From positions 10,844 to 74,843 of the forward strand of contig DASZFO010000312.1 in assembly GCA_035939775.1 (NCBI GenBank): a stretch of 64,000 nucleotides of DNA. The letters run 5' to 3'. The notes beneath the pieces were generated by a model. It made no database searches and was not told the DNA's origin. It was given only the letters and a program-made list of their open reading frames with translations. Source of the stretch: Pirellulales bacterium (lineage in GTDB: Bacteria; Planctomycetota; Planctomycetia; Pirellulales; DATAWG01). Shown piece by piece: positions 176 to 19,463 of the stretch (positions are counted from its first letter, which is position 1; each line of letters starts with the position of its first letter). The translations under genes and the position numbers were made by a program.

Positions 176-1372
176 TCACCCCGGCGTCCGGCTGAGCGAG
201 AAAATGGGCAGCAATAACGACATGGCAATTCCGCCAACCACCACTCCCATGACCGTGATCATGATCGGTTCGATCATGCTGGTCACGGTTCTGAGCGACG
301 ATTCGACCTCATGATCGTAATACGTGCTCACTCGCTCCAACACAATATCCAACTTACCGGTCTCTTCGCCGGTCGAGATCATCTGGACCAGCATCGGGGG
401 GAAGAGCGGGTTGCCGGCCAGTGCCTCACAGATCTGTTTGCCGCACGTGACCTGGTCGAGCACCTGCAGCCACAGCCGTTCATAGTAGAAATTCCCCGCC
501 ACGTCGGCGCAGAGGCGAATCGCATCGAGCACGGGAACGCCGCTCGCCACCATGGTGCCCAGCGTGCGAATGCTGCGGCTGATAATCACTTTGCGCAGCA
601 TGGCCCCGCTGAGCGGAGCGTGAATCTTGAATCCGTCCCAGATTTGCTTTCCCCGCTCGGTTCGTTTCCCGAACAAGAACCCCGCCGCGAGCGCTACACA
701 ACCGGCAAGCCAGAACGGCCAGTAATCGATCAGCACGTTGGATAGGCCCATCATGAACACGGTCGAGCTGGGCAACTGAATCCCGCGGCGGTTGAAGAGC
801 GGAGTGAATTTCGGCAGCACATACGTCAACAGGAAGATCGTCACGGCCACGGCGACGACCAACATCACGGTCGGGTAGGCCAGCGCGGCGCGGACCTTGA
901 GTCGCGTGTCCAATTCCTTGCGAAGGTAGCCGGCAATCCGGTCGAGCATTTGGCCGAGCGTGCCGGTTGCTTCGCTGGCGCGAACGAGCGAGACGTAGGT
1001 CTTATCGAACAGCTTCGGATACTTGGCCAGCGCGGTGGAGAAATCATCTCCCGATTCGACGACCGATTTGAGATCCGCGAGCACTCGGCGGAGGCTCGGA
1101 TTCTGCTCCTGGCCAAGAATTCCGCCGAGTGCGGCCGAGAGCGTAATGCCCGTGTCGACCATCACGGCCAACTGGCTGGTGACGTAGATGATTTCGTTCT
1201 TCGTCACGCGGCGCGGAAACAGCCCGCCGTCGTCCAGTTCGTCGAGCTTCAAGATGAGAAAGCCGTTGCGGCGGAGTTGCAGCGTGGCCTCATCGACACC
1301 GGCGGCCTCGAGCTGGCCGTCGACGACGTTTCCCAGCGTATCGCGGATGCGGTATTGGAAGGTCATGGTCAT
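176..1372 (-). CDS. pilC: Type II secretion system F family / type IV pilus platform protein PilC
   Basis: 398 aa; QLAVMVDTGITL, EATGTLGQML, ALAYP, GEETGKLD and IEP motifs with three TM segments typical of GspF/PilC. Confidence 0.93.
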   Translation of the reverse strand: MTMTFQYRIRDTLGNVVDGQLEAAGVDEATLQLRRNGFLILKLDELDDGGLFPRRVTKNEIIYVTSQLAVMVDTGITLSAALGGILGQEQNPSLRRVLADLKSVVESGDDFSTALAKYPKLFDKTYVSLVRASEATGTLGQMLDRIAGYLRKELDTRLKVRAALAYPTVMLVVAVAVTIFLLTYVLPKFTPLFNRRGIQLPSSTVFMMGLSNVLIDYWPFWLAGCVALAAGFLFGKRTERGKQIWDGFKIHAPLSGAMLRKVIISRSIRTLGTMVASGVPVLDAIRLCADVAGNFYYERLWLQVLDQVTCGKQICEALAGNPLFPPMLVQMISTGEETGKLDIVLERVSTYYDHEVESSLRTVTSMIEPIMITVMGVVVGGIAMSLLLPIFSLSRTPG

Positions 1373-1431
1373 GGCAGACTTAGGACCTCTTCTCTTTCGT
1401 GCACTGGCGGCGTGTTTCGCGGCAGCGCGGA

Positions 1432-1460
1432 GCGGACGGCACGCGGAGTTTGCCTGCTAC
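1432..1460 (-). repeat. GTAG-family REP-like palindrome
   Basis: Minus strand reads GTAGCAGGCAAACTCCGCGTGCCGTCCGC directly after the pilB stop: GTAG tetranucleotide followed by an imperfect GGCA...TGCC hairpin. Confidence 0.55.
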
Positions 1461-1461
1461 T

Positions 1462-3192
1462 TTACATTGCACTTTCGGCCGCGGCCTCGCGCGTTTCTCC
1501 GGCCACGTGGAACACTTCCTCGACCGTCGTGATCCCCTCGCGGACTTTGCGGAAGCCATCTTGGCGGAGCGTGACCATTCCGCGCCGGCGGGCCAATTCT
1601 TCGAGCGTCTGGAGCGGCGCCCTCGAGGCGATCGCGTCGCGCAGCTCTTCATTGAGCAGCAGCAATTCGTGGATGCCGATCCGCCCGCTAAAGCCCGTGT
1701 TGCGGCAATGCCGGCAACCAACTCCGCGGAAGAACTCGGGAATCTCGCAGCCCATCCGTTCCAGCGCCTTGCGAACTGTCCGCGGCGGCTCGTAGCTCTG
1801 CCGGCATTTCGAGCAGGTTCGCCGCACGAGCCGCTGCGCCAACACGGCGTTCAGCGCGGCGGCGATCAAATACGGCTCGACACCCATGTTGACCAGCCGA
1901 GTGACGGCCGAGCAGGCACTATTCGTGTGCAAGGTGCTGAAAACCAGATGGCCGGTGAGCGCCGCTTGAATCGCGGTTCGAGCGGTTTCCTCGTCGCGGA
2001 TTTCGCCGACCATAATCACATCGGGATCTTGCCGCAAAAGCGTTCGCAGGGCCTTGGAAAACGTCAGCCCGACCTTCTCCTGCACCTGGAATTGGTTGAT
2101 CAACGGCAGATGGTATTCAATCGGGTCCTCGACCGTGCAAATGTTGTTGTCCATCGAGCTGATCGAGTTGAGCGCGGCGTAAAGCGTGGTCGATTTGCCG
2201 CTGCCGGTCGGGCCGGTGACGAGAATAATCCCGTTTGGAGCGCGGATCGATTCCTGAAAGTCCGTCAACACGTCCTCGAGAAACCCGAGGTCCTGCAGAT
2301 TGAGCGAGACGCTCTTGGTGTCGAGAATTCGGATGACCGTCTTTTCCCCGCGCGTCGTGGGGAACGTGCTGACGCGGAGGTCGATCTTGCGGCTGTCGAG
2401 CATCACGTGAACGCGGCCATCTTGTGGCAACCGGCGCTCGCTGATATCCATCGAAGCCATGATCTTGATACGGCTGGTCACGGCCCCGAGCAAGTGCAGA
2501 GGGACCTCGAGAGTTTTGTACAGCCGCCCATCCACCCGGTTGCGCACGCGCAGGCAGCGCTCCGCCGGCTCGATCTGAATATCGCTCGCGCCCTCCTTGG
2601 CGGCCGAGTAGATGATGAAATTCACGAGGCGGATCACCGGCGATTGGCCGGCGATCTCCTCGACGTCGCCGATATCTTCGATCGCCTCCTCGATCAAATG
2701 GACGTCGGCCGCCTCGGAGTCTTCGATGATGTCGTCGATGACGAACACCTTCGAATTCGGCAGGCCCGTGAGCATCCGGCGGATGTCGCGGGGCGTGGCG
2801 GCGACGATCTGGATTTGCCGCCGCGTGACGTTACGCAACTCCTCGATCAAGAATAGATTCGACGGTTCGGCGACGGCGACGGTCAGCGTGTCGCGCACCA
2901 GGAACAGCGGCAAGACGAGATTCGCTTCGATGTAGTCGCGCGGCAGAATCTCGACGACGTTGGGATCGTACAGCCGCGTCTCGAGCTTGGCATAGGGCAC
3001 GCCATATTCGGCCGCCAGACACTCGACGATCTGCTCCTCGGTGCAGACGTCCAATTCGACGAGGATTTCACCGAGCAACTTCCCTTCGCTGCTCCCCTGC
3101 TGATGGGAAAGCGCTTGCTCGAGCGCATCGATCGACAAATATCCTCTGTCGAGCAGCAGCGTGCCGAGGCGTTGTGGCGCTTCGATGGACAT
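1462..3192 (-). CDS. pilB: GspE/PilB assembly ATPase with N-terminal MshEN-type domain
   Basis: ERRLPQDGR, Walker A GPTGSGKST, TVEDPIEY, LRQDPDVIMVGEIRD, TGHLVFSTLHTN, two CxxC pairs; start placed at ATG 3192 (MSIEAPQRLG) rather than 3270. Confidence 0.93.
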   Translation of the reverse strand: MSIEAPQRLGTLLLDRGYLSIDALEQALSHQQGSSEGKLLGEILVELDVCTEEQIVECLAAEYGVPYAKLETRLYDPNVVEILPRDYIEANLVLPLFLVRDTLTVAVAEPSNLFLIEELRNVTRRQIQIVAATPRDIRRMLTGLPNSKVFVIDDIIEDSEAADVHLIEEAIEDIGDVEEIAGQSPVIRLVNFIIYSAAKEGASDIQIEPAERCLRVRNRVDGRLYKTLEVPLHLLGAVTSRIKIMASMDISERRLPQDGRVHVMLDSRKIDLRVSTFPTTRGEKTVIRILDTKSVSLNLQDLGFLEDVLTDFQESIRAPNGIILVTGPTGSGKSTTLYAALNSISSMDNNICTVEDPIEYHLPLINQFQVQEKVGLTFSKALRTLLRQDPDVIMVGEIRDEETARTAIQAALTGHLVFSTLHTNSACSAVTRLVNMGVEPYLIAAALNAVLAQRLVRRTCSKCRQSYEPPRTVRKALERMGCEIPEFFRGVGCRHCRNTGFSGRIGIHELLLLNEELRDAIASRAPLQTLEELARRRGMVTLRQDGFRKVREGITTVEEVFHVAGETREAAAESAM

Positions 3193-3204
3193 GAGGATCG
3201 CGGC

Positions 3205-3330
3205 TCGGGATTCGGGATTCGAATAACCTATTGCCCTGCAGGCAGTCGCATACAAGTCTTGGTGTTCCACATCGATCTGGAGCGATTCCGTTCGGCCTCT
3301 CCGAACCCGAATCCCCCGTCCCTAGCCCCT
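3205..3330. repeat. Inverted pair of short heptamer arrays
   Basis: TCGGGAT x2 at 3205-3218 faces degenerate CCGAACC/CGAATCC units at ~3300-3317. Confidence 0.45.
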
Positions 3331-3651
3331 GAAGCTTTTTACCGCGTCGATCACGCTTTCGAAAACTTCGAGTTGCTGATCGAGTCGCGTGATTTCCAGA
3401 ATCTTGCGATTGACGCCGTTAGTCGTAGCAATCTTCAAATCGCCCTCGTTAGTGCGAAGCTGGTCTTGCGCGTCGAGAAACGCCGTCAGTCCCGCGCTCT
3501 CGAGCAACTCGGTGCCGTCGAGGTCGAGGACGATCCGCGATTGGCCGAGCCCCGCACAAAAGCCGATCAGGGCTGCCGCTTGCTCTTCGCCGACTTCGTC
3601 CGGGGCATGCACCACGGCCACGTTGCCGAACACTTCAGTGGGAAGATTCAT
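3322..3651 (-). CDS. STAS-domain protein (anti-sigma factor antagonist type)
   Basis: MNLPTEVFGNVAVV...IVLDLDGTELLESAGL...ILEITRLD; ATG at 3651 overlaps the regulator stop. Confidence 0.85.
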   Translation of the reverse strand: MNLPTEVFGNVAVVHAPDEVGEEQAAALIGFCAGLGQSRIVLDLDGTELLESAGLTAFLDAQDQLRTNEGDLKIATTNGVNRKILEITRLDQQLEVFESVIDAVKSFRG

Positions 3652-4127
3652 AAGCGGCGGCGCCTCGGCGGAGCGCTTGCCGCATCCTCGGCAGACAATG
3701 GGTGCTCGCTGACGGGCGCGAGAGAAGCATGGCCGCGACCGCCGGCGTCCGAATCCGTCTGCTGTAAACCCTGTTCGACGGTGCGCAGCAGCTCCCGCGG
3801 ACTGAAGGGCTTGACCATCAGCTTGAAAAGGCCGTATTTCTCGGTGCTCTCGGCCGGTGATAGCTCGAAACCTTTGGCCGTCAGCATGATGATCGGCAAA
3901 TGGCGCGTGAGCGGGCTCCCGCGAATCCGCCGGCAAAGTCCGAAGCCGTCAAGCAAGGGCATTTGCAGGTCGGTGACCACCAGATCGGGCAGGCAGCGCT
4001 CGATCTCGCGCCAGGCGTCTTCGCCATTGCTGGCGCAGCGCACCTTGAGTCCGGCTCCCTTGAGCTTGAACTCCGCTGCCCGCAGGATCGCGATCTCATC
4101 GTCGCAAAGCAAAATCTGCTTGGTCAT
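3648..4127 (-). CDS. Single-domain (CheY-like) response regulator
   Basis: ILLCDDE, phosphoacceptor in DLVVTDLQMP, IIMLTAKG, KPFSP; no output domain. Confidence 0.9.
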   Translation of the reverse strand: MTKQILLCDDEIAILRAAEFKLKGAGLKVRCASNGEDAWREIERCLPDLVVTDLQMPLLDGFGLCRRIRGSPLTRHLPIIMLTAKGFELSPAESTEKYGLFKLMVKPFSPRELLRTVEQGLQQTDSDAGGRGHASLAPVSEHPLSAEDAASAPPRRRRL

Positions 4128-4179
4128 TTCACACCTTATCCTTCAACCGATCGCGCCCTCGGCCGTGTCGCACCGTCGC

Positions 4180-5703
4180 TTAAACAAGCTGGGCGGCGGC
4201 CGGGAGCGAAACCGTGAACATGCTTCCGGCGCCCGGCGTGCTTTCGACCGCGATTCGGCCGCCATGCACGTCTTCGACGATGTGCTTCGCCAGCGGCAGC
4301 CCGAGGCCGGTTCCCTGAGCCATGCCTCGATCCTTCTTGACGCGGTAAAACTTCTCGAACACCTTCACTTTGTCGTCTTCGCTCAGCCCAACCCCCGTGT
4401 CGTTCACCTCGAACGCGACCTGGTCGTCGACTGTCCGGCTGCGCAACGTGACCGCGCCTCCCGTGGGAGTGTACTTGATCGCATTGGAAAGCAAATTGAT
4501 CGCGGCCTGCATGAGCATGTCTCGGTCGGCGAGCACGGCGAGATACATTGGGCTGAATTCGGCGGCGAGCTGGATCTGCTTCGCAACGGCCGAAGGTCGG
4601 ACAATATCGAGCGCCTCGCCGAGCAGTTCATTCAACGAAATGCTCTTCTTCGAGACGTCGATGACGCCCGCTTCGATGCGGGCTATGTTGAGTAGATTGT
4701 CGATCAGCCGTTGCAAGCGATTGGCCTGGCCGTCGATCACACTGAGGAAGTCCTCGCGGATCGCCGAATCCGCCGGATCGCAATCGGCCAGCAATTCCAC
4801 ATACGCCTTGATCCCCGACAGCGGCGACTTCATTTCATGGCTCACAGCCGAGACAAACTCCGCATAGCGCTTCTGGCCCGATTTGAGTTCGCTGATGTCG
4901 CGGAGCACGGCGAAGGCCCCCGGTGACGGCTTGCTGAACGCGCCGCCGCGATCATCGAGTGCGAGACTTCGCGCGACGATGGCAAACCACCGTGAATTCC
5001 CGGCGTCGTCCAGCAACTCAACCTCGCCGGTTCGCTGGGAAGGGGCCTTCCTCCGTCGCGTCTCAGTCAGCAGATCCACAAGTCGTTCGCAGCGGAGCAA
5101 GCTTGCCAACGGCTTTCCCGTCGAGGGTTTTCCCTCGATTAGAAATAGCTTCTCGGCGCTGGCGTTGGCCAGAATCAGCTCGTCAAACGCGTTGATCGCC
5201 AGCAGCGGCTGCGGCAAATCGACGAGCATCGTTTCGAGCTGCTTTTGGCGGGCCGCGTTGCGTCGCAGCCGAATCTCGAGCGCTGACCGCGCTTGCTCGG
5301 ATTCGCGCAACCGTTCGGCGAGGGCGCCGAACCGCTCGGCCGAATTCCGCGTCACCGCAAACCAGGGATTTGTCGGCGGCAAGGCAGCTTCGACCGACAT
5401 CGCGGCCTGGGACAGCTCGCGCGCGTCCATGCGGCTGAGTTGGTCAACGTATTGGAGGGCCTTCCGCTGGGCGCGCGTCACATGACGACCCCAAAGAAAG
5501 GCCGAGCCGGCCGCAAAGACGAATCCCAACCCAAAGGCGCGTTCGCGGATCGATAGCTGCGATTGTCCCGGCAGAATCAGGCACCCGAACCAGAGCGCAA
5601 ACCAGGCGACAACCACCGCGGTCGCCAACGACAGGAGGGCCTTGCCCTTGGTGTCGGGGCGCTGGGCAATGTGATTGTGAGATTCAGGAGAGTGGTCTGT
5701 CAT
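4180..5703 (-). CDS. Membrane sensor histidine kinase with PAS-like domain
   Basis: Two N-terminal TM segments; H-box SHEMKSPL, N-box NLLSNAIKY, DTGVGL, FEKFYRV, GTGLGL. Confidence 0.92.
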   Translation of the reverse strand: MTDHSPESHNHIAQRPDTKGKALLSLATAVVVAWFALWFGCLILPGQSQLSIRERAFGLGFVFAAGSAFLWGRHVTRAQRKALQYVDQLSRMDARELSQAAMSVEAALPPTNPWFAVTRNSAERFGALAERLRESEQARSALEIRLRRNAARQKQLETMLVDLPQPLLAINAFDELILANASAEKLFLIEGKPSTGKPLASLLRCERLVDLLTETRRRKAPSQRTGEVELLDDAGNSRWFAIVARSLALDDRGGAFSKPSPGAFAVLRDISELKSGQKRYAEFVSAVSHEMKSPLSGIKAYVELLADCDPADSAIREDFLSVIDGQANRLQRLIDNLLNIARIEAGVIDVSKKSISLNELLGEALDIVRPSAVAKQIQLAAEFSPMYLAVLADRDMLMQAAINLLSNAIKYTPTGGAVTLRSRTVDDQVAFEVNDTGVGLSEDDKVKVFEKFYRVKKDRGMAQGTGLGLPLAKHIVEDVHGGRIAVESTPGAGSMFTVSLPAAAQLV

Positions 5704-5844
5704 TGGCGCACGTCGGGAAACACGGCATCGATTCGGTTACGCAGCATCTCGCCAACGAGCGCGAAGCTCCCGCCGAGTCGACTGCCCTGGCCGACCCCGC
5801 AGCACGAGCTGTGGGCGCGAGTCTCTATCGGCGCTCGGTGCGCG

Positions 5845-6924
5845 TCAATCGGGCCGGTTACCGTAGCGCGGGTCGAGCCGGGCCGCCTCGTCAAAATGTC
5901 GACGAGCGGCGTCCGCTTCGCCCAGCCGGGCTAGGGTCGAGCCCATTAAAAAGTAGGCCAGGGCATTGGACTTGTCCAACACGAGGGCCCGGCCCAAAGA
6001 AACCCGCGCCGCAGTAAAATCTCCATGCCGGTACTGCGCCATTCCCAGCACGCGGTAGAGCGCTGACGAATCGGGGAAGTTTCGAAGCGCGGCGGTCGCG
6101 ATCTCGATGGCCGCTTCCGGTCGATCCTCGCGCAACGCATAGACCGTCGCGTCCAGCGGAATCTGCGAGTCATCCGGATGAGCATTGGCCGACTGATAAA
6201 ATGCGGCCAGCCGGTTGCGAACCGCCGAGTCGGAATCGGCGGATTCACCGTCCCCTCCCGCACAGTCCGACTTCCCGTCAGAAACGGCGCGGTCAAGGCG
6301 ATCGGGAGTGTTGATGCTTCCAACGTGACCGTCAGGGGGCGGCAGCGTGGCCTTGAGTGCCGCCTGATAGCTCGCCTGATAGGCTTCTTCCCGAGGGGCT
6401 AATTGCGCTGCCTTCTCGTAATGGGGCAAGGCGTCGGCCATTCCTCCCAATGCGTCGAGCGCCAGGGCCGCTTCGTAATGGGCTTGCGCGTCGTTGGCGT
6501 GCGCGACTAAGACATGCCGAGCCCGATCGAGCGCCTGCTTTGGCTTGTCGTCGAATAGGTCTAATTGAGCCGCCAGTAACTGGGCCTCGCGATGGTCGGG
6601 ATTCCGGGCCAGGAGCGACGTGAGCGCCTCGCGGCAGCCGGTTGCATCTCCTTGTTGCCAGCGGCTCAATCCGGCCTGATATTGGGCTCGATCCCGTTGT
6701 TGGTCGAATTCGGCGGCGACCATCTTTCGGCGCTGCTCGCGCTGCTCGGCCACGCTTGGCGAAGCCGGTTTAGCAGACGATGTTTCACTGGCCGGCTTGT
6801 TTGCGGGGTCGTTCGGCGAGGTCTTGCTCGCATCGACCGTCGCGCAACCGGCGATCGCCGTCAGAAAAGCTGACAGAATCAGGCTGCGGCTATGAGCGAT
6901 GCGAGAACAGAGACGACGGCTCAT
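5845..6924 (-). CDS. TPR-repeat lipoprotein (possible pilotin/secretin accessory)
   Basis: Start ATG 6924 overlaps the secretin stop (ATGA); lipobox-like LTAIAGC; several TPR-like helical repeats. Confidence 0.75.
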   Translation of the reverse strand: MSRRLCSRIAHSRSLILSAFLTAIAGCATVDASKTSPNDPANKPASETSSAKPASPSVAEQREQRRKMVAAEFDQQRDRAQYQAGLSRWQQGDATGCREALTSLLARNPDHREAQLLAAQLDLFDDKPKQALDRARHVLVAHANDAQAHYEAALALDALGGMADALPHYEKAAQLAPREEAYQASYQAALKATLPPPDGHVGSINTPDRLDRAVSDGKSDCAGGDGESADSDSAVRNRLAAFYQSANAHPDDSQIPLDATVYALREDRPEAAIEIATAALRNFPDSSALYRVLGMAQYRHGDFTAARVSLGRALVLDKSNALAYFLMGSTLARLGEADAARRHFDEAARLDPRYGNRPD

Positions 6925-9179
6925 GGGGACTCGAAGTAATGCGGCCGTTCGATGCTCGTGCTGCTGCCGGGAACACCCGGATCCATTGGATGCTGCGGCA
7001 GCAGTGGCGAGATGAGTTGCTCGGCAGCGGGATGCTGCAGATCGTTCAGAATCCAAGGCGGAGTGGTTTGGCCGTCGAGCGCTCGCGCATCGCCGACAGG
7101 GACGGGAAACTTAACCGCCGTGTGCTCGTCGAAATGATTGCCGGTCAGGATGTCGCTGCGCAGCTCGATGGCGGCTCGACTTAGCGGATCGTAATGGATC
7201 GACAAATCGATGAACCGCAGTGCAGTCGCCTGATCGCCGGCCGCCCAGGCTTGCTGGGCCAGTCGGTAGTGTTGCCGCCCGAGGTATCGTTTGCCGATCG
7301 GGCTCATCTGATCGGCATAAATGGCCTGGCGGCGATGGAAGTCGGCGGCGCCCTTGGACCCTTCGGCACAGGCCTCGGCGTCGTAGATGATGTGCGGCGT
7401 GATCAGCACGAGAATCTCGCTCTTCTGCGTATGATCGGTTTTTTGGCGAAACAGGAATCCGACTCCCGGCAGGCTTCCCAATAGCGGAATCTGGGTGACG
7501 TTGCTCGCCAAGTCTTCGCGCATCAGCCCTCCGATGATGACTGTCGCTCCGTCGCGGACCATAACGTTGGTCGTCACCTGAGTGACGTCCTTTTCCGGCA
7601 ACGTGAAACCGCTTTCGATCTTCACCTGGCCGGTGGAGAGTTCGGGATGAACCTCCATCCGGATCAAGCCGTCGGAGGAGATGAACGGGCGGAGGCGGAG
7701 CTGCGCGCCGACTTCCAGGAAATTGACATTCTGCGCCGTGCTCGTCTCCGTCACCGTGCTGCTGATATAGCCCAACTGGGAGCCAATCAGAATCTCGGCC
7801 TTGTGCTTGTTGACGCAGGTGAGTCGCGGCGTGGCGATGACGTTCGTGTCGCCGACGGTTTCGAGCGCTTGCAGAAACAGGCTCAGGCTCGAATCCAGAA
7901 AGGCGAAGTTCAAGCCGCCGTTGCTCACGTCGACGTTCGCCAGGCTCGACGGCGGATTGCCGCTGGTGAGCTTGATATGGGCGTTGTCGCGCAGCGCCTG
8001 GAAATTGATGCCGAAGGAGTTCTGGTCGTCCAGCTTGACGCTCAGAATCATCGCTTCGATGGCGACTTGCATCGGGCGCTTGTCGACCTCCGCGACGACC
8101 TGGTCTACTTGCGCCAGCACCGATTCATAATCGCGCACGAGCACCGATTCGCCGCCGGCAAACGTGTCGCCGCCGGCCTTCGTGTTATCGACCGCGATGC
8201 CCGTTTCCGCCGGAGGCGTCTTGCTGATCGTGCCGATGTCTCGCGTCAAGAGGGGCGTGATGAGCGCTTCCAAGTCGGTCGCGCGGACGTAGTTGGTTTG
8301 GTATACCCGCGTGCCGATTTTATCGAGCGACTGTTCGAGGTCCTGAAAATCCTTGGCCGTGCCGACGTAGATCATGGTGCCGTGCCGGCGCGTGACGTAG
8401 CCAGTCGATTTGAGGATCGCGGCCAATGCCGTTTGAATATCGACGTCGTGCAACGAGGCGGAGACTTTTCCCTTGACGGTGTTGCTCGGCAGGATGTTGA
8501 GATTGCCTTCGCGACTGATGAGTTCCAGGACGTCGCGGATATCGGCGTCCTGAAAATCGAGCGAAAGATGGTCGTCCCCTTCGCCGGATTTCGTGATTCT
8601 CGGTTTGGCCTTTGCGGACGGACCAGCCGGCGACAGGGGTCGCGCCCCCGGGCCGTTTTGGAGTGCCGGTGCATCCTGGTTTCGACCGCTTGCCGCTGGT
8701 TTTTCGACGGGCTCGGCGTTTGGCGAGTCCTTGCTGTTCTGCTCGAGCAGATCGCGCAGCTCGTCAAGACCTTCGCGCACCTTTTGCCGCGCCTCCGGGC
8801 TTCCTGGCGCCGGAACCTGTTGCTCGATCGCAGGCGATGGTTCTTCCGTCATGGCCAGCGATGGACCGTCTGCATTGGTGGCCGACGCCGATTCGGGCGG
8901 TTGAAGATCGGACCGATCGGCAGGCTGCAACGAATGCACCTCGACAAGCGGCGCCGGCTGGGCGACGAGATAGCGGCCGTTAGGAGCCGGTTCGCCCGCG
9001 AAAACCTCGTCGCGCGCTCCGGCTGGAAGCGGCACGGCGGTTTCGCCGGTCGCGCCGGCAGCCGTGTGCGATTTCGGGGCGCCACCCGGCGCCGGATCTG
9101 AAAGCGCGACGCAGATCGCCGCGCCGACTCCGGCGGCAGCAAAAATCCCTAACAGGAGCAACCGCGGAAATCTACTCAT
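6921..9179 (-). CDS. pilQ: Secretin (PilQ/GspD family)
   Basis: SLDFQDADIRDVL N-domain, QVAIEAMI, GATVIIGGL, IPLLGSLPGVGFLF, LVLITPHI. Confidence 0.9.
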   Translation of the reverse strand: MSRFPRLLLLGIFAAAGVGAAICVALSDPAPGGAPKSHTAAGATGETAVPLPAGARDEVFAGEPAPNGRYLVAQPAPLVEVHSLQPADRSDLQPPESASATNADGPSLAMTEEPSPAIEQQVPAPGSPEARQKVREGLDELRDLLEQNSKDSPNAEPVEKPAASGRNQDAPALQNGPGARPLSPAGPSAKAKPRITKSGEGDDHLSLDFQDADIRDVLELISREGNLNILPSNTVKGKVSASLHDVDIQTALAAILKSTGYVTRRHGTMIYVGTAKDFQDLEQSLDKIGTRVYQTNYVRATDLEALITPLLTRDIGTISKTPPAETGIAVDNTKAGGDTFAGGESVLVRDYESVLAQVDQVVAEVDKRPMQVAIEAMILSVKLDDQNSFGINFQALRDNAHIKLTSGNPPSSLANVDVSNGGLNFAFLDSSLSLFLQALETVGDTNVIATPRLTCVNKHKAEILIGSQLGYISSTVTETSTAQNVNFLEVGAQLRLRPFISSDGLIRMEVHPELSTGQVKIESGFTLPEKDVTQVTTNVMVRDGATVIIGGLMREDLASNVTQIPLLGSLPGVGFLFRQKTDHTQKSEILVLITPHIIYDAEACAEGSKGAADFHRRQAIYADQMSPIGKRYLGRQHYRLAQQAWAAGDQATALRFIDLSIHYDPLSRAAIELRSDILTGNHFDEHTAVKFPVPVGDARALDGQTTPPWILNDLQHPAAEQLISPLLPQHPMDPGVPGSSTSIERPHYFESP

Positions 9180-9207
9180 GTGTCTTCCGTGACAACCTTC
9201 CTCATTG

Positions 9208-9915
9208 CTAATTCCCGCCGCGTCGCGATTTGTCGTCGTTTAGTCGCACGTCTCTGCTCGGTTTCCGATCGCCATTCGAGGCCAGTTCGTCGCCCGGCAG
9301 AGCCAGTCGGTATTGCTTCCCTTTGCGCTCCAAAACGATCTCGCGAGGTCGAATCTCAACAAGTCGAAAGCTCCCAGCGCCATGCAAAGCGGGGATAAGA
9401 TCTCCTTCCTCGAAGACCTCTTTTCCGATTAGGGCCATCCTCTTTCCCAGTCCGACGATCGTGCTTATCAACACGATGCCGGCGTCGGCTGGGCTCAATT
9501 CGGCATCTCCGGGTGTGGCCCGCGGCGGGTTGGCTCGGATCAACTCGTTCCTCGATGAAGCGAACGGGTCTCGTCCAATCCCCAATTCGGTGGCCGGGGC
9601 CATTCGAGGATCCTGCTCCATCCAGGTAACTAACTGTCGCCATGGTCGCGTGGGGTTTTGGCCATTGCCGATCGACACTGTCGTGCCGGCCGTGACCGCG
9701 GGCTGGTTGCCCGATGCTGGCGCGGCTGACGATTTAATTGCGGCCGTCGCCGGGGCCTTGGCAGTTTTCGGATTCAGTTCCGGTTTGCCAAACCATTTTG
9801 CCGCCAGCGGCGCCCAAAACCACAACGCGACGACCGACCCTATGGCCAGAACGATGGCCTTTTTCGGGTTCGTCGCGACCTCGCGACGCACCTTGTATAC
9901 AAAGCGGGAACTCAC
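9208..9915 (-). CDS. Single-TM protein in PilP/GspC position
   Basis: TM segment, GRDPF motif and C-terminal ALIG...FRLVEIRPREIVL beta domain; lies between pilO and the secretin; GTG 9915 chosen for upstream GGAAAGG. Confidence 0.55.
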   Translation of the reverse strand: MSSRFVYKVRREVATNPKKAIVLAIGSVVALWFWAPLAAKWFGKPELNPKTAKAPATAAIKSSAAPASGNQPAVTAGTTVSIGNGQNPTRPWRQLVTWMEQDPRMAPATELGIGRDPFASSRNELIRANPPRATPGDAELSPADAGIVLISTIVGLGKRMALIGKEVFEEGDLIPALHGAGSFRLVEIRPREIVLERKGKQYRLALPGDELASNGDRKPSRDVRLNDDKSRRGGN

Positions 9916-9995
9916 GGAATCGCGCCTTTCCGGTCGAAGCAGGCAATGCATTGCCCAATCCGGCCCCTCTAATATCGGCCCAACACCGGTCTTAC

Positions 9996-10550
9996 CTAAT
10001 CGGAATTCTCCGATTTACCAGCAAAAACCACCAATCTCATTTCACATTTCATCTTTTGCCCAGTTTCGCGCAACGCCTCGAAACGCACATCGTCAAGCCA
10101 CATCCGCTCGGGCAATCCTTCCAATCCAGCTAGCAACCGACAGATTTCGACGAAACTCCCCTTCGCGGCGAACACGACCGGAACGACGCGCAATGTATCG
10201 AGTTCCACTTCGGGTTGTGGCTCGATCCGCGTCGTCCCAGCGCCGGCGACGTCGGCCTGTTTCGTGATTCGACCGAGAAGCGCCGAGAACGTACCATGCG
10301 TCGGCAGGCGCTGTCGCGAGCTGGTCGTATACTCCCTGGTGCGTTCGAGTTCTGACTGATTTTGAGCGAGGGCGATTGTGAGCGACGTGGCATGCGTGAT
10401 GTAGCTTTCATCGTTGCGAATCTCGTCGCGCAGCGACTTGATCGCTCGAGCGGTCGGAAAGAACGAAACCAGCAAATATAGAACTGTGGCAGCGGCGAGT
10501 GAAATGGTCACCGTCCAACTGCCGTATCGTGGTTGAGATTTCTTTCGCAT
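9996..10550 (-). CDS. pilO: PilO-like pilus alignment protein
   Basis: N-terminal TM, coiled coil, RLP...LL, KGSFVEICRLLAGLEGLPERM; downstream of pilN. Confidence 0.75.
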   Translation of the reverse strand: MRKKSQPRYGSWTVTISLAAATVLYLLVSFFPTARAIKSLRDEIRNDESYITHATSLTIALAQNQSELERTREYTTSSRQRLPTHGTFSALLGRITKQADVAGAGTTRIEPQPEVELDTLRVVPVVFAAKGSFVEICRLLAGLEGLPERMWLDDVRFEALRETGQKMKCEMRLVVFAGKSENSD

Positions 10551-10570
10551 AGATCAGAGAGAAAAGATCG

Positions 10571-10667
10571 GAAAAAGGAGATAAGTCCAACTAAGTCGGC
10601 GAATGAAGGGGCGCCGAATTCGCCGGCAGCGTTGCCGTCGACTTAATTGGACTTATCCCCTTTTTCG
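10571..10667. repeat. Inverted repeat pair spanning the pilN stop
   Basis: GAAAAAGGAGATAAGTCCAA (10571-10590) vs TTGGACTTATCCCCTTTTTC (~10647-10666): 19/20 complementary. Confidence 0.55.
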
Positions 10668-11364
10668 ACACCGGTTCCGGACCGCCGGGTTGACCGTAGC
10701 CGGGGCGCACGCCGAGCTGCGCCGAGAATCGCCAAGTTCTTTGTCGCTCTTCTTGATTCGCTTCCAGCGAAGTCAGCTCGACTTTTGCGAACAGCTTCGC
10801 TTCGCCGAGCGTTACGAGATAGCGCTGCAACGCCGCGGTGTCGCTCGTGATGCCGGACAGCACGAGAATCGTTTCGCGCGAGATGGTTTCGTCGCGGAGC
10901 TGCCGCAGATCGCGCTCGGCCGGTTCGAGCTTCTTGGCTTCCGCGTCGTCCTGCTTCTTGCCTCCCAAGCGCGCCGCGGGCGAATCGCTCGTGGAATTCG
11001 AACGGCGCAAAATGTGGATTTCACGGAGCGTCACGCAATCGGGCAGGCGAGAAAGGGCGGCAGTCAGTAGCTGGGTCCGGGGCCATGGATGCCGCAGATA
11101 AGTGAATAGCTCGGCTTGTTTGGTCGCGGATTTCAATTCCGACTGCATCGCCGCCATCTTGAGTGAAAGCGCCTCGGCTTGCTCATATTCGGGTTTCAAT
11201 TCGTCGAGTTGCCGGGCCGTTTGCCGATACAGAACCTGCTGATAAAGGAAGCTGCAAACGAGCGCCGCGGCGAATCCGCCGCCGATCAGAAGCCGCCAGA
11301 CGTTCGCCTTGCGATGGACCGTCTGCTCGCGATAGGAATTCGGAAGGAAGTCGATGTCTGGCAT
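10591..11364 (-). CDS. pilN: PilN-domain protein
   Basis: MPDIDFLP start motif (INLLP-like PilM-binding peptide), TM, coiled coil, LPDCVTL, LFAKVEL. Confidence 0.75.
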   Translation of the reverse strand: MPDIDFLPNSYREQTVHRKANVWRLLIGGGFAAALVCSFLYQQVLYRQTARQLDELKPEYEQAEALSLKMAAMQSELKSATKQAELFTYLRHPWPRTQLLTAALSRLPDCVTLREIHILRRSNSTSDSPAARLGGKKQDDAEAKKLEPAERDLRQLRDETISRETILVLSGITSDTAALQRYLVTLGEAKLFAKVELTSLEANQEERQRTWRFSAQLGVRPGYGQPGGPEPVSKKGISPIKSTATLPANSAPLHSPT

Positions 11365-11384
11365 GGCTCGCGCTTTTTCTCCTC

Positions 11385-12446
11385 TTAGTCCTCGGCGATG
11401 TCGCGCAGCGCCAGCCCGGTGGCGACGTCCCATTGGCCTTTGCGGCCGGTTTGGAGCGCGATCTCATAGCTTCGCAGCGGATCGCCAAGTTCGCACTTCA
11501 AGTCCATGCGAGCGGAGATCAGGTCCACCAGAGTCGGCGTCGCTTCTCCGCCGCTGATCACGATCCGCGATAGAGGCTGTCCTCGGAATGTGACGCTGTG
11601 GTAGCGGGCGCAGAGCGACAATTCGCTGGACAGCCGTTCGACGACGGGGCGAGTGGCTTCGGCGACGCTGCGCGCGATCTCCGGGTCTTGCTGATCCACG
11701 CGCCGATCGCCGTTGTGGCGCCGTAGCGCGGCAGCCTCGGAGAGCGGCATGTCCAGATGCCGCGAGACTGCCTCATCCAAATGACGTCCGCCGACATCGA
11801 CATACTTGATGAACAGCACGTCGGTGCCTTTTGCGATCACTACGACCGTGTTTGCCGCGCCCAGGTGCGCCAACAGCACGCGTTGCTGTTGATCCTCGTC
11901 GCGTCGATATTGTTTCGCATAGCAACGAAGCAAGGCCGCCGGCTCGACATCGACGGCTGCCACGCGCAGTCCGGCCTCTTCGACGGCCGCGAGCGCATCG
12001 CCCAGCCTCGCGCGGTGACAGGCGAGCAGGATCACCTCGCGCTTGCTCACCTCTCCCTGGCGAACGTCGGCGGCCTCGATAAAACGCACCTCCGCATCGT
12101 CGATGGCAAACGGCACGCGCCCAGCCGCCTCGTGGCGGACGATCTTTTCCATTTCATCGGCGGGCACTTTCGCCACCCGCACGTTTTGCACGAACAATTC
12201 CGGCGCCCCGAGACCGATGACCACGTCACGGCCGCGAAAATGTCTCCCTTCGCGAGCCTGTCGAATCGCCGCGACGACCTGCCGCCAGCGGACCGCCGGC
12301 GTCACCTCTTCAGCCGCCGGCAAATCCCAGCGCACGGCATCCACCACGCGGCTCCGATCCGTACTGAACTGGATCAACTTCACGCAATGGCTGCCGATAT
12401 CGAGACCGATCGGCCCAGGGCGGCGTGATTTCAGGCGGCGGATCAT
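11385..12446 (-). CDS. pilM: PilM actin-like pilus assembly protein
   Basis: IGLDIGSHCVKL, AVDVEPAAL, HLGAANT, VGGRHLD, ISGGEA, VATGLALR; start refined to ATG 12446. Confidence 0.88.
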   Translation of the reverse strand: MIRRLKSRRPGPIGLDIGSHCVKLIQFSTDRSRVVDAVRWDLPAAEEVTPAVRWRQVVAAIRQAREGRHFRGRDVVIGLGAPELFVQNVRVAKVPADEMEKIVRHEAAGRVPFAIDDAEVRFIEAADVRQGEVSKREVILLACHRARLGDALAAVEEAGLRVAAVDVEPAALLRCYAKQYRRDEDQQQRVLLAHLGAANTVVVIAKGTDVLFIKYVDVGGRHLDEAVSRHLDMPLSEAAALRRHNGDRRVDQQDPEIARSVAEATRPVVERLSSELSLCARYHSVTFRGQPLSRIVISGGEATPTLVDLISARMDLKCELGDPLRSYEIALQTGRKGQWDVATGLALRDIAED

Positions 12447-12524
12447 GCCAACGAATCCGTGGTTCCGCGTGTTCGGAGAGAATTGCATAACAAGTGCCGT
12501 CGCGGGCGGATTCATGACGAACTC

Positions 12525-14546
12525 TCACAATCCGATGGAGTGCAAGACACTGGTTATGACCTTGCCGAGTCCATTGCTGCCGGATTTTGAGTTCGTGCTT
12601 CCGGTACTGGTGCTGGTGCTCGAAGTGCCGCCTACCGGCGCAGTGGCGGTGCCAGTCGAGGTGCTGTTGACGGTGGCCTGAGTGGTCGCGGTCGTTCCGG
12701 AGGTTGTACCGGAGCTACCAGTGCTCGAAGTCCCACTAACCGGCGCGGTTGCGGTTTCAGTCGAGGTGCTGTTGACAGTGGTCTTAGTGGGCCCGGTCGT
12801 TCCGGAGGTTGTACTGGGGCTACCAGTGCTCGAAGTCCCACTAACCGGCGCGGTTGCGGTTTCAGTCGAGGTGCTGTTGGCAGTGGGTTGAGTGGTCGCC
12901 GTGGTTCCCGAGCTTATGCTCGTCGTGCCAGCGCTCGAGGTCCCGCTAACCGGCGCGGTGGCGGTTCCAGTCGAGGTGCTGTTGACTGCGGTTTGAGTGG
13001 TCGCCGTGGTTCCCGAGTTCGTGCTAGTGCTGCCGGTACTCAAAGTCCCGCTGACTGTCGCGGCAGCCGTTCCGGTCAAGTCGGCGCTGGCACTGACTTG
13101 AGCGGTCAGCGCGGTCCCGGAGGTTGTGGTGGTGTTGCCACTGCTCGAAGTCCCACTGACCGGCGCGGTGGCGATTGCCGTCGTTCCGGAGCCGGTGCTG
13201 ATGCTGCCAGTGCTCGAAGTCTCGCTGACCGGCACGGTGGCGGTTCCAGTCGAGGCGGTGTTGGTGGCAGTGGCTTGGGTGGTGGTCGGCGTGGTTCCGG
13301 AGCTGGTGCTGATGCTGCCGGTGCTCGAAGTCCCGCTCGTTTGCGAATTGACCGTTGCGGACAGGCCCACGCCGGCCGTGATTTGATTGGCTTGCGCGTT
13401 GGCCGCGGCGCCGTTAGCGCTGCCGCCGCTTCCGTTTGATGTTCCGCTGGTACTCGACGTCGAGTTTCCTGACAATCCCACGTCGGCGGAGATTTGAGCG
13501 GTTAGCCCGCCGCTTGAGTTCCCATTTGAACCGCCGCTCGTTGAATTCCCATCGACCTTCGCATCGGCGGAGACCGTCAAGCCGATTTCGAGGCCATCTT
13601 CAGCCGATGCCGTACTTCCCGAGCTTCCGTTGGCGATGCCGTTGCTCGAAGTTCCATCGACCGGCGCAATGGCGGCTCCCAACAAATCGGCACTGGTGCT
13701 GGTTTGAGCGGCCACTTTGTTCCCGGCACTTTGGCTGCCATCATCGTTGCTCGAAGTGCCACTGACGAGTGCCTTGACCGTTCCGGACAAGGCTTCGCCG
13801 ATGTTGGTTTGCGCGGTAATCGTGCTAGTCGAGTTGCCGCCGAGCGACGAACCGATGTCGCTGGGCGAAGAGCCGCCGACCAGCGCCGATCCGAGACTCG
13901 AGTTGACGCCCGTGCTCGAAACGCTGTTCGTGCTAGTCGTCGCGGCACTTCCAGTCGACGTGGGCGCCGACGCGATCGGCGGCGCGGCGCCTTGAAAACT
14001 GCCGATACTCGCGATACCCGTGACCGGATTGACAGAGATGGAGATATACCGCTCCGCGTTTCCTTCGGCAGCCGCCAACCAGATCACGGCCGGCTGCGTT
14101 TGGGTTGTCGCCCCGACCGGCCCGAATTCGACCGACGTGGTTTCGACCGGCTGAGGCGCGAGCGTCTGCACGTCGTAAAGTGCGACCGGTATTCCGATGT
14201 GCGGCAGATTCGCCAGCCGGACCACGTATTGGCTGGCCGAATCCTGCGACGATTGAAATGGCGAAGGAGGCAGCGTCGTCAGCGATGCGTTGTTGCCGCT
14301 GTACGATAGCGTGTACCGATTGTTTTGCGGATCGAACTGGAATTGATAGCGGTCGTTGTTCACCATCGCCAGACTGCGGCCGTACGCCAGATCGGCGGCC
14401 ACGATTTGCGCGGCCGAAGTCAATTGGTCGTGCACGCTGGGTGTGGCATTGGGCATCAAGGCCAGCGCCAAGATGCTCATCAGCACCACCACGATCAGGA
14501 CTTCGACGAGTGTGAAACCGGTGGAAGATCGTGGTCGGTGCGGCAT
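12525..14546 (-). CDS. FimT/GspH-like prepilin fused to a long Ser/Thr/Gly-rich repeat tail
   Basis: Class III signal STG|FTLVEVLIVVVLMSIL; ~190-aa pilin-like domain ending near VNPVTGIASIG; ~480-aa low-complexity tail; 673 aa from ATG 14546. Confidence 0.8.
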   Translation of the reverse strand: MPHRPRSSTGFTLVEVLIVVVLMSILALALMPNATPSVHDQLTSAAQIVAADLAYGRSLAMVNNDRYQFQFDPQNNRYTLSYSGNNASLTTLPPSPFQSSQDSASQYVVRLANLPHIGIPVALYDVQTLAPQPVETTSVEFGPVGATTQTQPAVIWLAAAEGNAERYISISVNPVTGIASIGSFQGAAPPIASAPTSTGSAATTSTNSVSSTGVNSSLGSALVGGSSPSDIGSSLGGNSTSTITAQTNIGEALSGTVKALVSGTSSNDDGSQSAGNKVAAQTSTSADLLGAAIAPVDGTSSNGIANGSSGSTASAEDGLEIGLTVSADAKVDGNSTSGGSNGNSSGGLTAQISADVGLSGNSTSSTSGTSNGSGGSANGAAANAQANQITAGVGLSATVNSQTSGTSSTGSISTSSGTTPTTTQATATNTASTGTATVPVSETSSTGSISTGSGTTAIATAPVSGTSSSGNTTTTSGTALTAQVSASADLTGTAAATVSGTLSTGSTSTNSGTTATTQTAVNSTSTGTATAPVSGTSSAGTTSISSGTTATTQPTANSTSTETATAPVSGTSSTGSPSTTSGTTGPTKTTVNSTSTETATAPVSGTSSTGSSGTTSGTTATTQATVNSTSTGTATAPVGGTSSTSTSTGSTNSKSGSNGLGKVITSVLHSIGL
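12616..13330. repeat. 105-bp (35-aa) coding tandem repeat
   Basis: GTGCTCGAAG-like anchors at 12616, 12721, 12826, 12931, 13036, 13141 (exact 105-bp period), then 13210 and 13321 (69 and 111 bp). Confidence 0.9.
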
Positions 14547-14551
14547 GGCGT

Positions 14552-14803
14552 CTATTGCTTCTTGTCCAGCGAGATCAGCACCTTGAGGTTGCCCGAACGC
14601 AATAGCGCGTTCTGGTCCTTCAATTCGGCGACGATCTCTTTGAGTTGGGCGATCATCTCGGCCCGCTGTTCGACCGAATTGGCGAACGGCTGCGAATCCT
14701 CGGGAGGCGCGGCGGTGGTGGGCCGATAGAAACCTAGCATACAAAGTCCCAGGACGTTGATCGCGACGAGGATTCCGAACCGGACTCTTGTGACGGTTTT
14801 CAT
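14552..14803 (-). CDS. Small exported/membrane coiled-coil hypothetical protein
   Basis: 83 aa; hydrophobic N-terminus, PFANSVEQRAEMIAQLKEI; fills the gap between co-oriented operon genes. Confidence 0.65.
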   Translation of the reverse strand: MKTVTRVRFGILVAINVLGLCMLGFYRPTTAAPPEDSQPFANSVEQRAEMIAQLKEIVAELKDQNALLRSGNLKVLISLDKKQ

Positions 14804-16436: not shown

Positions 16437-17227
16437 GGTATCCCGTAACAGAAAACGGCCGAGCCGAGAAACGGAATCGCCGTTTCGCCGGCCGAATTGC
16501 CGATCACCCAGCTCGCGCCCGGCATCAATTGAATTTCGCCGCGGAGCCAAACTTGCCGCATCCCCTTGCTGGAACCATAGATGCCGACCGGCCAGGGGAG
16601 ATTATTCCACGTGACCGTGCCCGCCGTGTATCTCGACCAATCAGCGGCCGACGGAGTCAATGTGACGACGAATCGCGCCGCCGCCCGCTGCCCAACGCTG
16701 CCGCTCGGCATGAGCGCGACGCGGACAAGATCGGTGAGCACGACTTTATTGGTCGCCGTGCTCGTCTTCAGACCGTCGATCAAACTCTTGAGGGCCACGG
16801 GATCGGTCGCCGGTAACTGACGGGTGTCGCCGGGGGCCGTCATTTGAACGAAGTTATTCAACGCCGCCGAATCGGGGCAGAAGACGGTCAACTCCTGCAC
16901 AAGCGGCGGGCCGGCCGGATTGGCCGGGGCGCCGTTCGGATGCCAAATGACGACCGTGTCGGGAAATGTCGAGCTTCCATCCGTATCCGGGACGACCCAT
17001 ACGCCGGGGTAAATGAGCGTGCCATAGGCCTCGTTCACAGCTCGATCGATGCGGTCGAAACTGGTTCGAGCATGCTCCGTTGCCGTGCCATAACCTTGGC
17101 CGTATTCGTTGGCCAGTTGCACGGAATGCGCCGCCGCGGCTAGCGCTCCCATGACGATCGCCATGATGATCGTGGCGAATGTCAGCTCGATGAGCGTCAA
17201 ACCGGCGCGTTTAGGAATTTGGGACAT
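16433..17227 (-). CDS. Prepilin-type minor pilin (PilW/GspJ-like)
   Basis: KRAG|LTLIELTFATIIMAIVMGAL class III signal. Confidence 0.8.
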   Translation of the reverse strand: MSQIPKRAGLTLIELTFATIIMAIVMGALAAAAHSVQLANEYGQGYGTATEHARTSFDRIDRAVNEAYGTLIYPGVWVVPDTDGSSTFPDTVVIWHPNGAPANPAGPPLVQELTVFCPDSAALNNFVQMTAPGDTRQLPATDPVALKSLIDGLKTSTATNKVVLTDLVRVALMPSGSVGQRAAARFVVTLTPSAADWSRYTAGTVTWNNLPWPVGIYGSSKGMRQVWLRGEIQLMPGASWVIGNSAGETAIPFLGSAVFCYGIP

Positions 17228-18971: not shown

Positions 18972-19028
18972 TGTTCGTTTGCCGGTTTGGTATACTATCT
19001 GGTGCTGATACCCCAGACTGCCGAAAAC

Positions 19029-19463
19029 ATGTCCCAGACGCCCACGAGCGAATCGAATCCGGATCGTCCACCACGCACATTATTGCGGCGGGCGGATCAA
19101 CTGGGAATCGCCGTCTTGACGCTAATCGCCCTCGTTACCATCAGTGGGTACTGGCTCAATCAGGCGGTACTCTCACATCGGGTGATCGACCTCGATAAAG
19201 CCGCGCCGCGCGATCCGATGTTTCGAGTGGACGTGAATTCCGCGGACTGGCCCGAGTTGGCCCAGTTGCCGGAAATCGGCGAAACGCTCGCGCGGCAGAT
19301 CGTCGCCTGGCGCGAAGCACACGGGCCGTTCAAGGATGTGAGCGATTTGCACCGCATCAAGGGGATTGGCCCCAAGAAATTTGAGGCAATTCGGCCCTTC
19401 CTGCGTCCACTCGGACCAACTCCGCCAGCGGCCGATCGCTCGATTGCCGATGAGCGGCGGTGA
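19029..19463 (+). CDS. comEA: ComEA-family helix-hairpin-helix DNA-binding membrane protein
   Basis: TM segment then VDVNSAD...LPEIGETLA...GPF...IKGIGPKKFE; extended -10-like TGGTATACT at ~18988. Confidence 0.75.
   Translation: MSQTPTSESNPDRPPRTLLRRADQLGIAVLTLIALVTISGYWLNQAVLSHRVIDLDKAAPRDPMFRVDVNSADWPELAQLPEIGETLARQIVAWREAHGPFKDVSDLHRIKGIGPKKFEAIRPFLRPLGPTPPAADRSIADERR

Follow-up and report, generated by a model that had tools for sequence, protein, structure and literature searches.

A FimU/GspH-like Pilin Carrying a 488-aa Low-Complexity Repeat Tail in an Uncultured Soil Planctomycete

The window analyzed here, a stretch of 64,000 nt from a Pirellulales bacterium (Planctomycetota; assembly GCA_035939775.1, contig DASZFO010000312.1, positions 10,844–74,843), contains a type IV pilus-like gene cluster in which a FimU/GspH-like pilin gene encodes a 185-amino-acid (aa) pilin head followed by a repeat-built tail of 488 aa. 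The existence of this long-tailed pilin is confirmed. We tentatively favor a reading in which the tail serves as a lengthy spacer, extended over most of its course, and would keep an amphipathic end helix that is conserved in relatives at a distance from the pilus tip, as an arm for surface or cell contact. The original prediction, made from the letters of the same DNA alone, had described the protein as a pseudopilin with a mucin-like tail, and several of its statements are revised below.

The minus strand from 14546 to 12525 forms a single 673-aa frame with zero internal stops, and the tail region contains 7–24 stops in each of the other five frames. Parts of the gene were recovered in six soil-metagenome runs, and in no listed RNA run; all six were compared with the window. 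Run X1 is the possible source sample, X2 comes from a different study that shares year and habitat with it (possibly one campaign), and X3 belongs to a third study from 2025. Two X2 contigs, covering 13461–14639 and 12776–13448, show no difference from the window, and the former crosses the head–tail junction at 13992, which upholds the claim that the frame runs from the pilin domain into the tail without a stop. The pieces from X3 differ from the window at 2 of 231 letters (13294–13524), 10 of 294 (13690–13983), and 6 of 664 (14017–14680) without gaps and thus represent an allele diverged by about 2% and free of insertions or deletions. A stop or frameshift after the pilin domain was looked for in the other runs, and none was found in the pieces from X2, X3, and X6. 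In X1, the depth of a 61-nt exactly repeated block is 13.9, compared with 6.4–7.9 in its neighbors, which fits two copies. Among the pieces listed none covers the whole gene, and the stop codon is covered by X1 only.

At its N-terminus the protein carries the intact class III signal that had been predicted, with cleavage at G10|F11 and a glutamate at residue 15; both N_methyl PF07963 (29.3 bits, cut-off 21.2) in Pfam and TIGR02532 (21.3, cut-off 16.3) in NCBIfam are matched. On the basis of the G|F cleavage site, Glu5, and the hydrophobic N-terminal helix, we assign the protein to the type IV pilin superfamily. In the full-length AlphaFold model aa 11–190 are mostly of high confidence and the remainder has a pLDDT below 50. 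A Foldseek search with the head returned only six matches at an E value of 0.001 or less, all of them to FimU of Pseudomonas aeruginosa or EpsH of Vibrio cholerae (4IPU, E 1.4e-4; 2QV8, E 5.1e-4; target TM scores 0.56–0.66), in agreement with the predicted FimT/GspH-type head. The class III signal, the head fold, and a minor-pilin operon are thus held in common with the FimU/FimT/GspH minor pilins (FimU 4IPU, EpsH 2QV8; PF12019), from which the window protein differs by its 488-aa tail, by having no match to PF12019 in Pfam, and by a head that lacks Cys and therefore a D-region disulphide. PF12019 is matched at an E value of 0.001 or less by 13 of 39 aligned family members, and against the curated FimU/FimT/GspH profile TIGR01708 the protein scores 30.9, below the cut-off of 80. 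FimU and GspH have been proposed as tip adaptors (PMC8897410). The short flexible tail of FimT is basic and binds DNA (PMC8897410), whereas the window tail is acidic (net charge −10) and Arg-free; because of this charge and the lack of Arg, a DNA-binding tail of the FimT kind is disfavored. C-terminal strand addition in tip complexes is described for PilK and not for FimU (PMC13533445).

Residues 191–655 consist of T (111), S (107), G (65), A (59), N (25), V (24), L (15), I (13), P (13), Q (12), D (10), E (6), and K (5), and nothing else, so that Ser and Thr account for 218 of 465 residues and Arg, Phe, Trp, Tyr, His, Met, and Cys are absent. The six anchors at an exact 105-bp period that the original prediction reported were recovered at aa 463, 498, 533, 568, 603, and 638, that is, at exact 35-aa spacing, and TRF detects a period of 105 with 5.3 copies and 78% matches at 12616–13173. 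To judge from borders drawn by hand, the repeats extend beyond these six anchors, and the whole tail is built of about 12 related units: aa 226–645 can be divided into 12 units of 23–45 aa, each of which closes with an anchor resembling V-[SD]-G-[TN]-S-S. Nine units contain a core of 21 aa that aligns free of gaps, one unit is slightly longer, and two are halves. In the nine aligned cores Gln occupies position 4 in seven, Ala or Val position 15 in all, and Val position 19 in eight, and the hinges between them vary in length. Odd core positions hold Ala, Val, Leu, Ile, or small residues, and even positions are polar. This in-phase period-2 hydrophobicity was reached by none of 20,000 shuffles, a figure overstated by the kinship of the units; taken singly, seven of nine cores show the alternation at p < 0.05, and an alignment-free test gave z values of 5.7–8.2 for the tail, whereas four Ser/Thr-rich segments taken from this genome as controls scored between −1.1 and 0.2. 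The label "mucin-like" thus fits the composition but does not capture the alternation reminiscent of beta strands or the scarcity of Pro (13/465). Because each unit would combine a Gly/Ser hinge with a strand-patterned core, the tail probably has some order and is not simply a random coil.

The same pattern invites the view that the repeats fold as an ordered beta module of stacked hairpins or a small-residue solenoid, with Ala, Val, and Leu inside and rows of Thr, Ser, Asn, and Gln outside, so that the pilin would bear a rigid surface able to adhere or to self-associate. We regard this as unlikely. It would explain the gap-free alignment of the cores between variable hinges and their alternation, a sister clade ends in GVSVDVGGLNINLNL, which has a strand-turn-strand pattern, and a beta-solenoid module is present in the pilin ComZ (10.1101/2021.01.27.428410). 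Set against it are the AlphaFold results, with a tail pLDDT below 50 in the full-length model and of 38 for three units (8-row self-alignment), which count weakly given the almost nil alignment depth; the Pro residues in the younger cores; and an alternation of Ser/Thr with other residues that is typical of extended glycosylated stalks as well. Searches with aa 226–673 against PDB sequences gave no match at an E value of 10 or less, ESM Atlas searches with aa 290–520 and 460–673 gave no usable match, and the tail matches nothing in Pfam or NCBIfam. Thr-rich beta-solenoid ice-binding and ice-nucleating proteins resemble the younger units in their Thr-x-Thr rows and small-residue alternation, but the window tail differs in having no predicted fold or sequence match to them and in its irregular, Pro-bearing units. 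A bolder proposal, which we consider similarly unlikely, is that a new folded or self-assembling beta-repeat domain has been caught in the making: from a 40–60-aa Ser/Gly tail with a hydrophobic end, a strand-turn-strand unit would have been duplicated about 12 times on the FimU adaptor of one soil planctomycete lineage, giving a Thr-faced rod with a conserved helix cap that would act as a PilY1-independent tip adhesin.

The extended-spacer reading gains from the C-terminal end. The amphipathic end that had been noted, GLGKVITSVLHSIGL, is as stated and is conserved in relatives: the predicted end helix GLGKVITSVLHS aligns with GLTNLIQTILGS, in which the relatives end, at every hydrophobic position, and the helical hydrophobic moments are 1.7–1.8 for the relatives' ends and 2.2 for the window. 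Sixteen sequences from six clusters with 72–76% head identity end in G-x-x-N-L-I-Q-T-I-L-G-(S/I) after Ser/Gly tails of 37–63 aa. Phylogenetically, the window falls within a 20-row clade (support 100/98) in which 10 rows end in LIQTILG(S/I), and a grouping of the window and six helix forms as one clade is not rejected (p-AU 0.41). The simplest reading is that the tail arose by internal expansion between the head and a kept end motif. Among own-genome open reading frames (ORFs) of at least 150 aa the end-motif pattern occurs in this ORF only, which led us to reject a genome-wide sorting signal. PEP-CTERM and GlyGly-CTERM signals include a transmembrane stretch; the end has none, and these signals were likewise rejected.

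The statement that homologous pilins are normally short holds. The head was matched at an E value of 1e-20 or less in 126 of 401 genomes of the order, the window genome included, and the other stop-to-stop frames among those genomes are at most 372 aa. Forty-seven of the other 125 genes were read and encode 186–239 aa, bar a single copy with a frameshift, from a genome of 55% completeness, and the best 150 of 218 strong matches among 1.84 billion representatives are 135–276 aa long. From 212 head-profile matches we removed nine in which the match stops before the head end, two fusions to PilM, and the window itself, resulting in a set of 200 homologues whose tails have a median of 16 aa and a maximum of 106 aa, with 10 over 60 aa; orthologues are typically about 190–205 aa. 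Tail length varies within the closest clade, as the predicted length variability implies. An alignment query yielded 27 loci, with a complete gene of 187–256 aa in 22 and a gene open at the contig end in five. Searches restricted to 325–2000 and 435–2000 aa, which are weak evidence of absence, returned as longer homologues only P0052 and P0053; these pilin–PilM fusions, which also lie in the 20-row clade, were rejected as probable frameshift artefacts because a cytoplasmic PilM behind an exported pilin is implausible. A single-protein locus search found nothing in metagenomes and one unrelated match in genomes, no relatives were found in viral contigs, and no copies of the tail or of the core profile occur elsewhere in the genome. 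Outside the order the family is rare (8 of 401 phylum genomes). Two side observations concern the orthologues. The sister orthologues P0022, P0032, P0065, and P0066 have a strictly alternating GVSVxVGGL..NxNL end, patterned like the older cores of the window, after a Ser/Thr/Gly spacer. In two low-completeness genomes the orthologue frame is broken (L064/L065 of G004; L075 of G212), possibly by sequencing error.

The original prediction took units 12721 and 12826 to be nearly identical and concluded that the repeats had expanded recently. Over their 105 bp these units agree at 84%, with a single exactly shared block of 61 bp, and the most similar pair, 12616/12721, reaches 86%; the near-identity therefore does not hold. 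With synonymous divergence among the five exact units at 0.22–0.50, a recent expansion is not supported. The ratio of non-synonymous to synonymous divergence (dN/dS) is 0.16–0.60 in all ten pairs of these units, and two pairs sharing no unit show a synonymous excess (Fisher p 0.0001–0.0006). In simulations a tail free of Arg, Phe, Trp, Tyr, His, Met, and Cys was kept in 0 of 2,000 cases at 5% divergence and in 1.2% at 2% divergence. Given the synonymous divergence, the dN/dS values, and the loss of the residue exclusion in simulations, the tail appears old, drifted at silent sites yet constrained as a protein, and its sequence pattern points to selection. Over the repeats, an X3 piece (one contig, depth 3.6) has 36 differences; of 26 listed, 18 equal the window letter 105 bp further on and none creates a stop, and this mosaic suggests exchange between repeat units. 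The tail would thus have grown by in-frame unit duplication combined with such exchange.

Selection of a simpler kind could also act on such a tail. The repeats might be tolerated bulk, grown by slippage, which selection merely keeps polar, soluble, and in frame for export and which has no role of its own. A tail of this length is unique to one population, five of nine listed tail differences in X3 are non-synonymous, and other orthologues bear unrelated acidic or Ser/Gly tails of 50–106 aa, which indicates that the C-terminus tolerates additions. We nevertheless consider this explanation rather improbable, because the fixed core length, the phase-kept alternation, and a dN/dS below one exceed what a mere composition filter would leave and because the end motif is retained across a tenfold change in tail length.

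In the extended-spacer reading, and following known pilus biology, the protein would be exported and cleaved at G10|F11, and the processed pilin would take its place beside PilV/W/X in the tip complex. The pilus would be type IVa-like, with its major pilin and PilT supplied from elsewhere in the genome. Each unit would contribute a Gly/Ser hinge and a 21-aa strand-patterned core, and with a contour of 0.36 nm per residue the roughly 470 residues would reach a contour length of roughly 170 nm, so that the semi-ordered spacer could present the end helix for surface or cell contact. Bulky modular pilins have been argued to be located at the tip (10.1101/2021.01.27.428410), and the logic of a spacer with a binding end is known from the stalks of serine-rich repeat proteins (PMC7661464).

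Several observations weigh against this reading. The protein is known here from sequence alone and from one uncultured population; the tail was matched in 1 of 401 genomes, the window genome only (a floor, as this first look was stricter), and as far as seen the long form is confined to that population. Most orthologues lack the end, and the 20-row clade includes three rows with 16–17-aa tails and no end motif and four rows that end, after 37–60 aa, in the different, strand-like motif GVSVxVGGL..NxL; the core role therefore does not depend on the helix. In the AlphaFold model the end is not helical, no binding partner was identified, and the tree does not show the window and the helix clade as sisters, the branching inside the clade being unsettled. 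Constraint on the tail appears looser than on the head, because five of the nine listed X3 tail differences (12 in total) alter a residue and four are synonymous, whereas all three listed of five differences in the compared part of the head are synonymous. Finally, the cluster contains neither a major pilin nor PilT, and its ATPase scores GspE (591.7) and PilB (585.3) alike, both under the cut-off, and an external pilus is therefore not proven.

O-glycosylation of the tail is possible by analogy, since O-oligosaccharyltransferases (O-OTases) target serines in low-complexity regions (PMC9239064). The genome encodes, away from the cluster, PMT_2 proteins and three Wzy_C proteins over the cut-off, one of them with tetratricopeptide repeats (TPR); searches for PF11846 (Wzy_C_2) and PilY1 gave no match in the genome or in controls and are uninformative. 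An O-glycosylated S-layer is reported for a planctomycete (PMC5088730). A hydrated, possibly glycosylated tail might thus act as a shield that masks the pilus tip from tip-binding phages, which attach to the part of the tip that contains FimU and against which swapped FimU proteins protect (PMC12952977); a reshuffled unit mosaic in X3 would suit such a role, as would the O-OTase targets and the Wzy_C proteins. We judge this quite improbable, however, since no glycosyltransferase lies within the cluster, O-antigen ligases carry Wzy_C as well, strains differ little in the head, no relative was found in viral contigs, and a conserved end helix would be superfluous for shielding.

The type of the system bears on where the extended spacer would be displayed. 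The cluster runs in the order PilV-like, PilW-like, PilX/GspK-like, an 83-aa ORF, the fimU-like gene, PilM, PilN, PilO, PilP/GspB-like, secretin, TPR protein, histidine kinase, regulator, STAS protein, PilB/GspE, and PilC-like (table 1), and the gene order is identical in five other genomes examined, the cluster being conserved in a planctomycete order. Here and in these five relatives the fimU-like gene adjoins the PilV/W/X-like genes, as expected for a FimU-type operon rather than a lone FimT. PilM, PilN, and PilO match PF11104, PF05137, and PF04350 over the Pfam cut-offs, PilN just so, and the secretin scores best with PilQ (TIGR02515, 224.8, under its own cut-off) versus 196.3 for GspD; a PilM/N/O alignment complex with a PilQ-type secretin is the mark of type IVa systems. 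Because PilM/N/O are present and the secretin is nearer PilQ, we consider the protein more likely a minor pilin of the FimU class, belonging to a type IVa-like system, than the pseudopilin it was first called.

In the alternative of a type II secretion-like machine, the tail would be periplasmic, and its end helix would tether the pseudopilus to the membrane or recruit cargo. The slightly higher GspE score of the ATPase, GspH among the weak matches of the head, the GspK match of the PilX-like protein, the lack of PilT in the cluster, and the best major-pilin candidate elsewhere (151 aa, alone on contig C111), with its weak T2SSG match (17.4 bits, cut-off 21), lean in that direction. The PilM/N/O and secretin matches make it very improbable, as do three PilT/U proteins over the cut-off elsewhere in the genome, which may serve another cluster on contig C354, and the lack of a GspG (PF08334) match at an E value of 0.001 or less in the 96% complete genome, in a search that was positive in 2 of 14 controls. 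The genome encodes many DUF1559 prepilin-like proteins, whose abundance is a planctomycete trait. As for an assembly artefact, with a stop or frameshift behind the head missing from the assembly or with a wrong number of repeats, the metagenome-assembled genome is in 384 contigs and no listed contig spans the gene, but the X2 contig bridging the junction, the unshifted tail pieces of X3 and X6, and a longest exact repeat of only 61 bp leave it a negligible chance.

Table 1. Coordinates of the pilin gene, its parts, and the surrounding cluster in the window
Feature	Position	Strand	Basis
Long-tailed minor pilin gene, fimU/gspH-like, 673 aa	12525..14546	-	Translation
Class III signal: leader MPHRPRSSTG, cleavage G10|F11, E15, hydrophobic helix	14454..14546	-	Sequence and Pfam
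Pilin head, aa 11–185, FimU/GspH fold, mostly pLDDT 83–98	13992..14516	-	AlphaFold, Foldseek
Proximal Ala/Pro/Ser/Thr linker, aa 186–225, brief form also in short-tailed orthologues	13872..13991	-	Orthologue comparison
Older repeat units 1–5, aa 226–410, 25–45 aa each, cores with Leu/Val/Ile alternation	13317..13871	-	Borders by hand on V-[SD]-G-[TN]-S-S anchor
Younger repeat units 6–12, aa 411–645, units 8–12 exact 35 aa/105 bp, Thr-rich	12612..13316	-	TRF, anchors
61-bp exact direct repeat	12714–12774 and 12819–12879	.	Sequence
Amphipathic C-terminus GLGKVITSVLHSIGL (hydrophobic moment 2.2), matching the relatives' GLTNLIQTILGS	12528..12572	-	Sequence comparison
PilV/GspI-like minor pilin	17211–17849	-	Weak family match and gene order
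PilW/GspJ-like minor pilin	16433–17233	-	Weak family match and gene order
PilX/GspK-like minor pilin	14826–16457	-	Weak family match and gene order
Conserved 83-aa ORF, no known family, directly upstream of fimU-like gene	14552..14803	-	Pfam/NCBIfam scans, relatives
PilM, PilN, PilO, PilP/GspB-like, secretin	6921..12515	-	Pfam/NCBIfam
TPR protein, histidine kinase, response regulator, STAS protein, PilB/GspE ATPase with cyclic di-GMP (c-di-GMP)-binding motif, PilC/GspF-like platform	176..7056	-	PilC/GspF-like platform named from sequence and position

Other features of the cluster and its surroundings were observed. The 83-aa ORF (14552–14803, minus strand), which lies between the PilX-like and FimU-like genes and has an N-terminal hydrophobic stretch followed by a likely coiled coil, is present in all 11 other genomes or contigs examined (45–64% identity) with no match in Pfam or NCBIfam, and it is likely an unnamed core part of the pilus system. 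The PilX/GspK-like protein (14826–16457, minus strand; about 540 aa) has a large Gly/Val/Ile-rich C-terminal region with no Pfam match, which may be a beta-helix module as in ComZ. A ComEA-like helix-hairpin-helix protein is encoded on the opposite strand (18870–19463, plus) about 1 kb from the cluster start, and such a gene lies near the cluster in three of eight relatives' loci reaching PilV, which hints at a possible part of the system in DNA uptake. The histidine kinase, response regulator, and STAS protein genes (1462–5703, minus strand), between the secretin and the PilB with a c-di-GMP-binding motif, are kept in relatives. Just outside the window (L059:9354–10202, minus strand), downstream of the PilC-like gene, a 282-aa protein has a VPEP-hydrophobic-basic (PEP-CTERM-like) end. 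Another type IV cluster, on contig C354, encodes long pilins, PilT, and a pair of PilB-like ATPases, and contig C309 carries a Tad-like cluster. A 24-bp repeat (3.3 copies, 61998–62077) lies within a 372-aa Pro/Thr/Tyr-rich ORF (61461–62618), and a promoter and terminator scan gave chance-level results only.

The original prediction knew of no described equivalent, and this stands in part. Large C-terminal modules grafted onto pilins are a described class, the modular pilins, which include S. sanguinis PilB/PilC, enterotoxigenic Escherichia coli (ETEC) CofB, and T. thermophilus ComZ and with which the window protein shares a large extra module on a pilin head (185-aa head, 488-aa repeat region). 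One pilin in a survey of modular pilins measures 860 aa and carries the same repeat motif 12 times (Raynaud et al. 2021; 10.1101/2021.01.27.428410). Searches of an open-access library for pilins, tails, and planctomycete surface proteins found no account of a FimU/GspH pilin with a low-complexity repeat tail. The modules of described modular pilins are folded domains with database signatures or structures, whereas the window module is of low complexity, sits on a FimU-class subunit, has no match in Pfam, NCBIfam, PDB, or the Atlas and no confident fold that would make it a defined functional domain, and is traceable from 37–63-aa precursors in relatives. With the serine-rich repeat proteins Fap1, GspB, and PsrP it shares a long Ser-rich repeat region, interpreted as an extended stalk that projects a binding part (PMC7661464), and it differs from them in being anchored by an N-terminal pilin head and in ending in a 15-aa predicted helix, not a globular domain; no LPxTG anchor or accessory Sec/GtfAB was found in the protein or in the 16 cluster proteins that were scanned, the rest of the genome not having been searched. 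We therefore describe the module as a low-complexity repeat on a putative FimU-class adaptor, a variant of the modular pilins that reaches such a length in one population as far as seen.

The weight of the finding is limited by its origin in a single uncultured population and by a role read from sequence. FimU/GspH-class subunits are viewed as small adaptors, and here one bears a module about three times its own size with no known domain. Short precursors in close relatives make it possible to trace, stage by stage, how low-complexity repeats give rise to a pilin module. The fibres of planctomycetes, which have been linked to attachment and polysaccharide binding (PMC8303584), are poorly understood. 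If the tail is displayed, it would be a concrete candidate for them and would probe the size of cargo that can pass a secretin and be accommodated by a tip complex.

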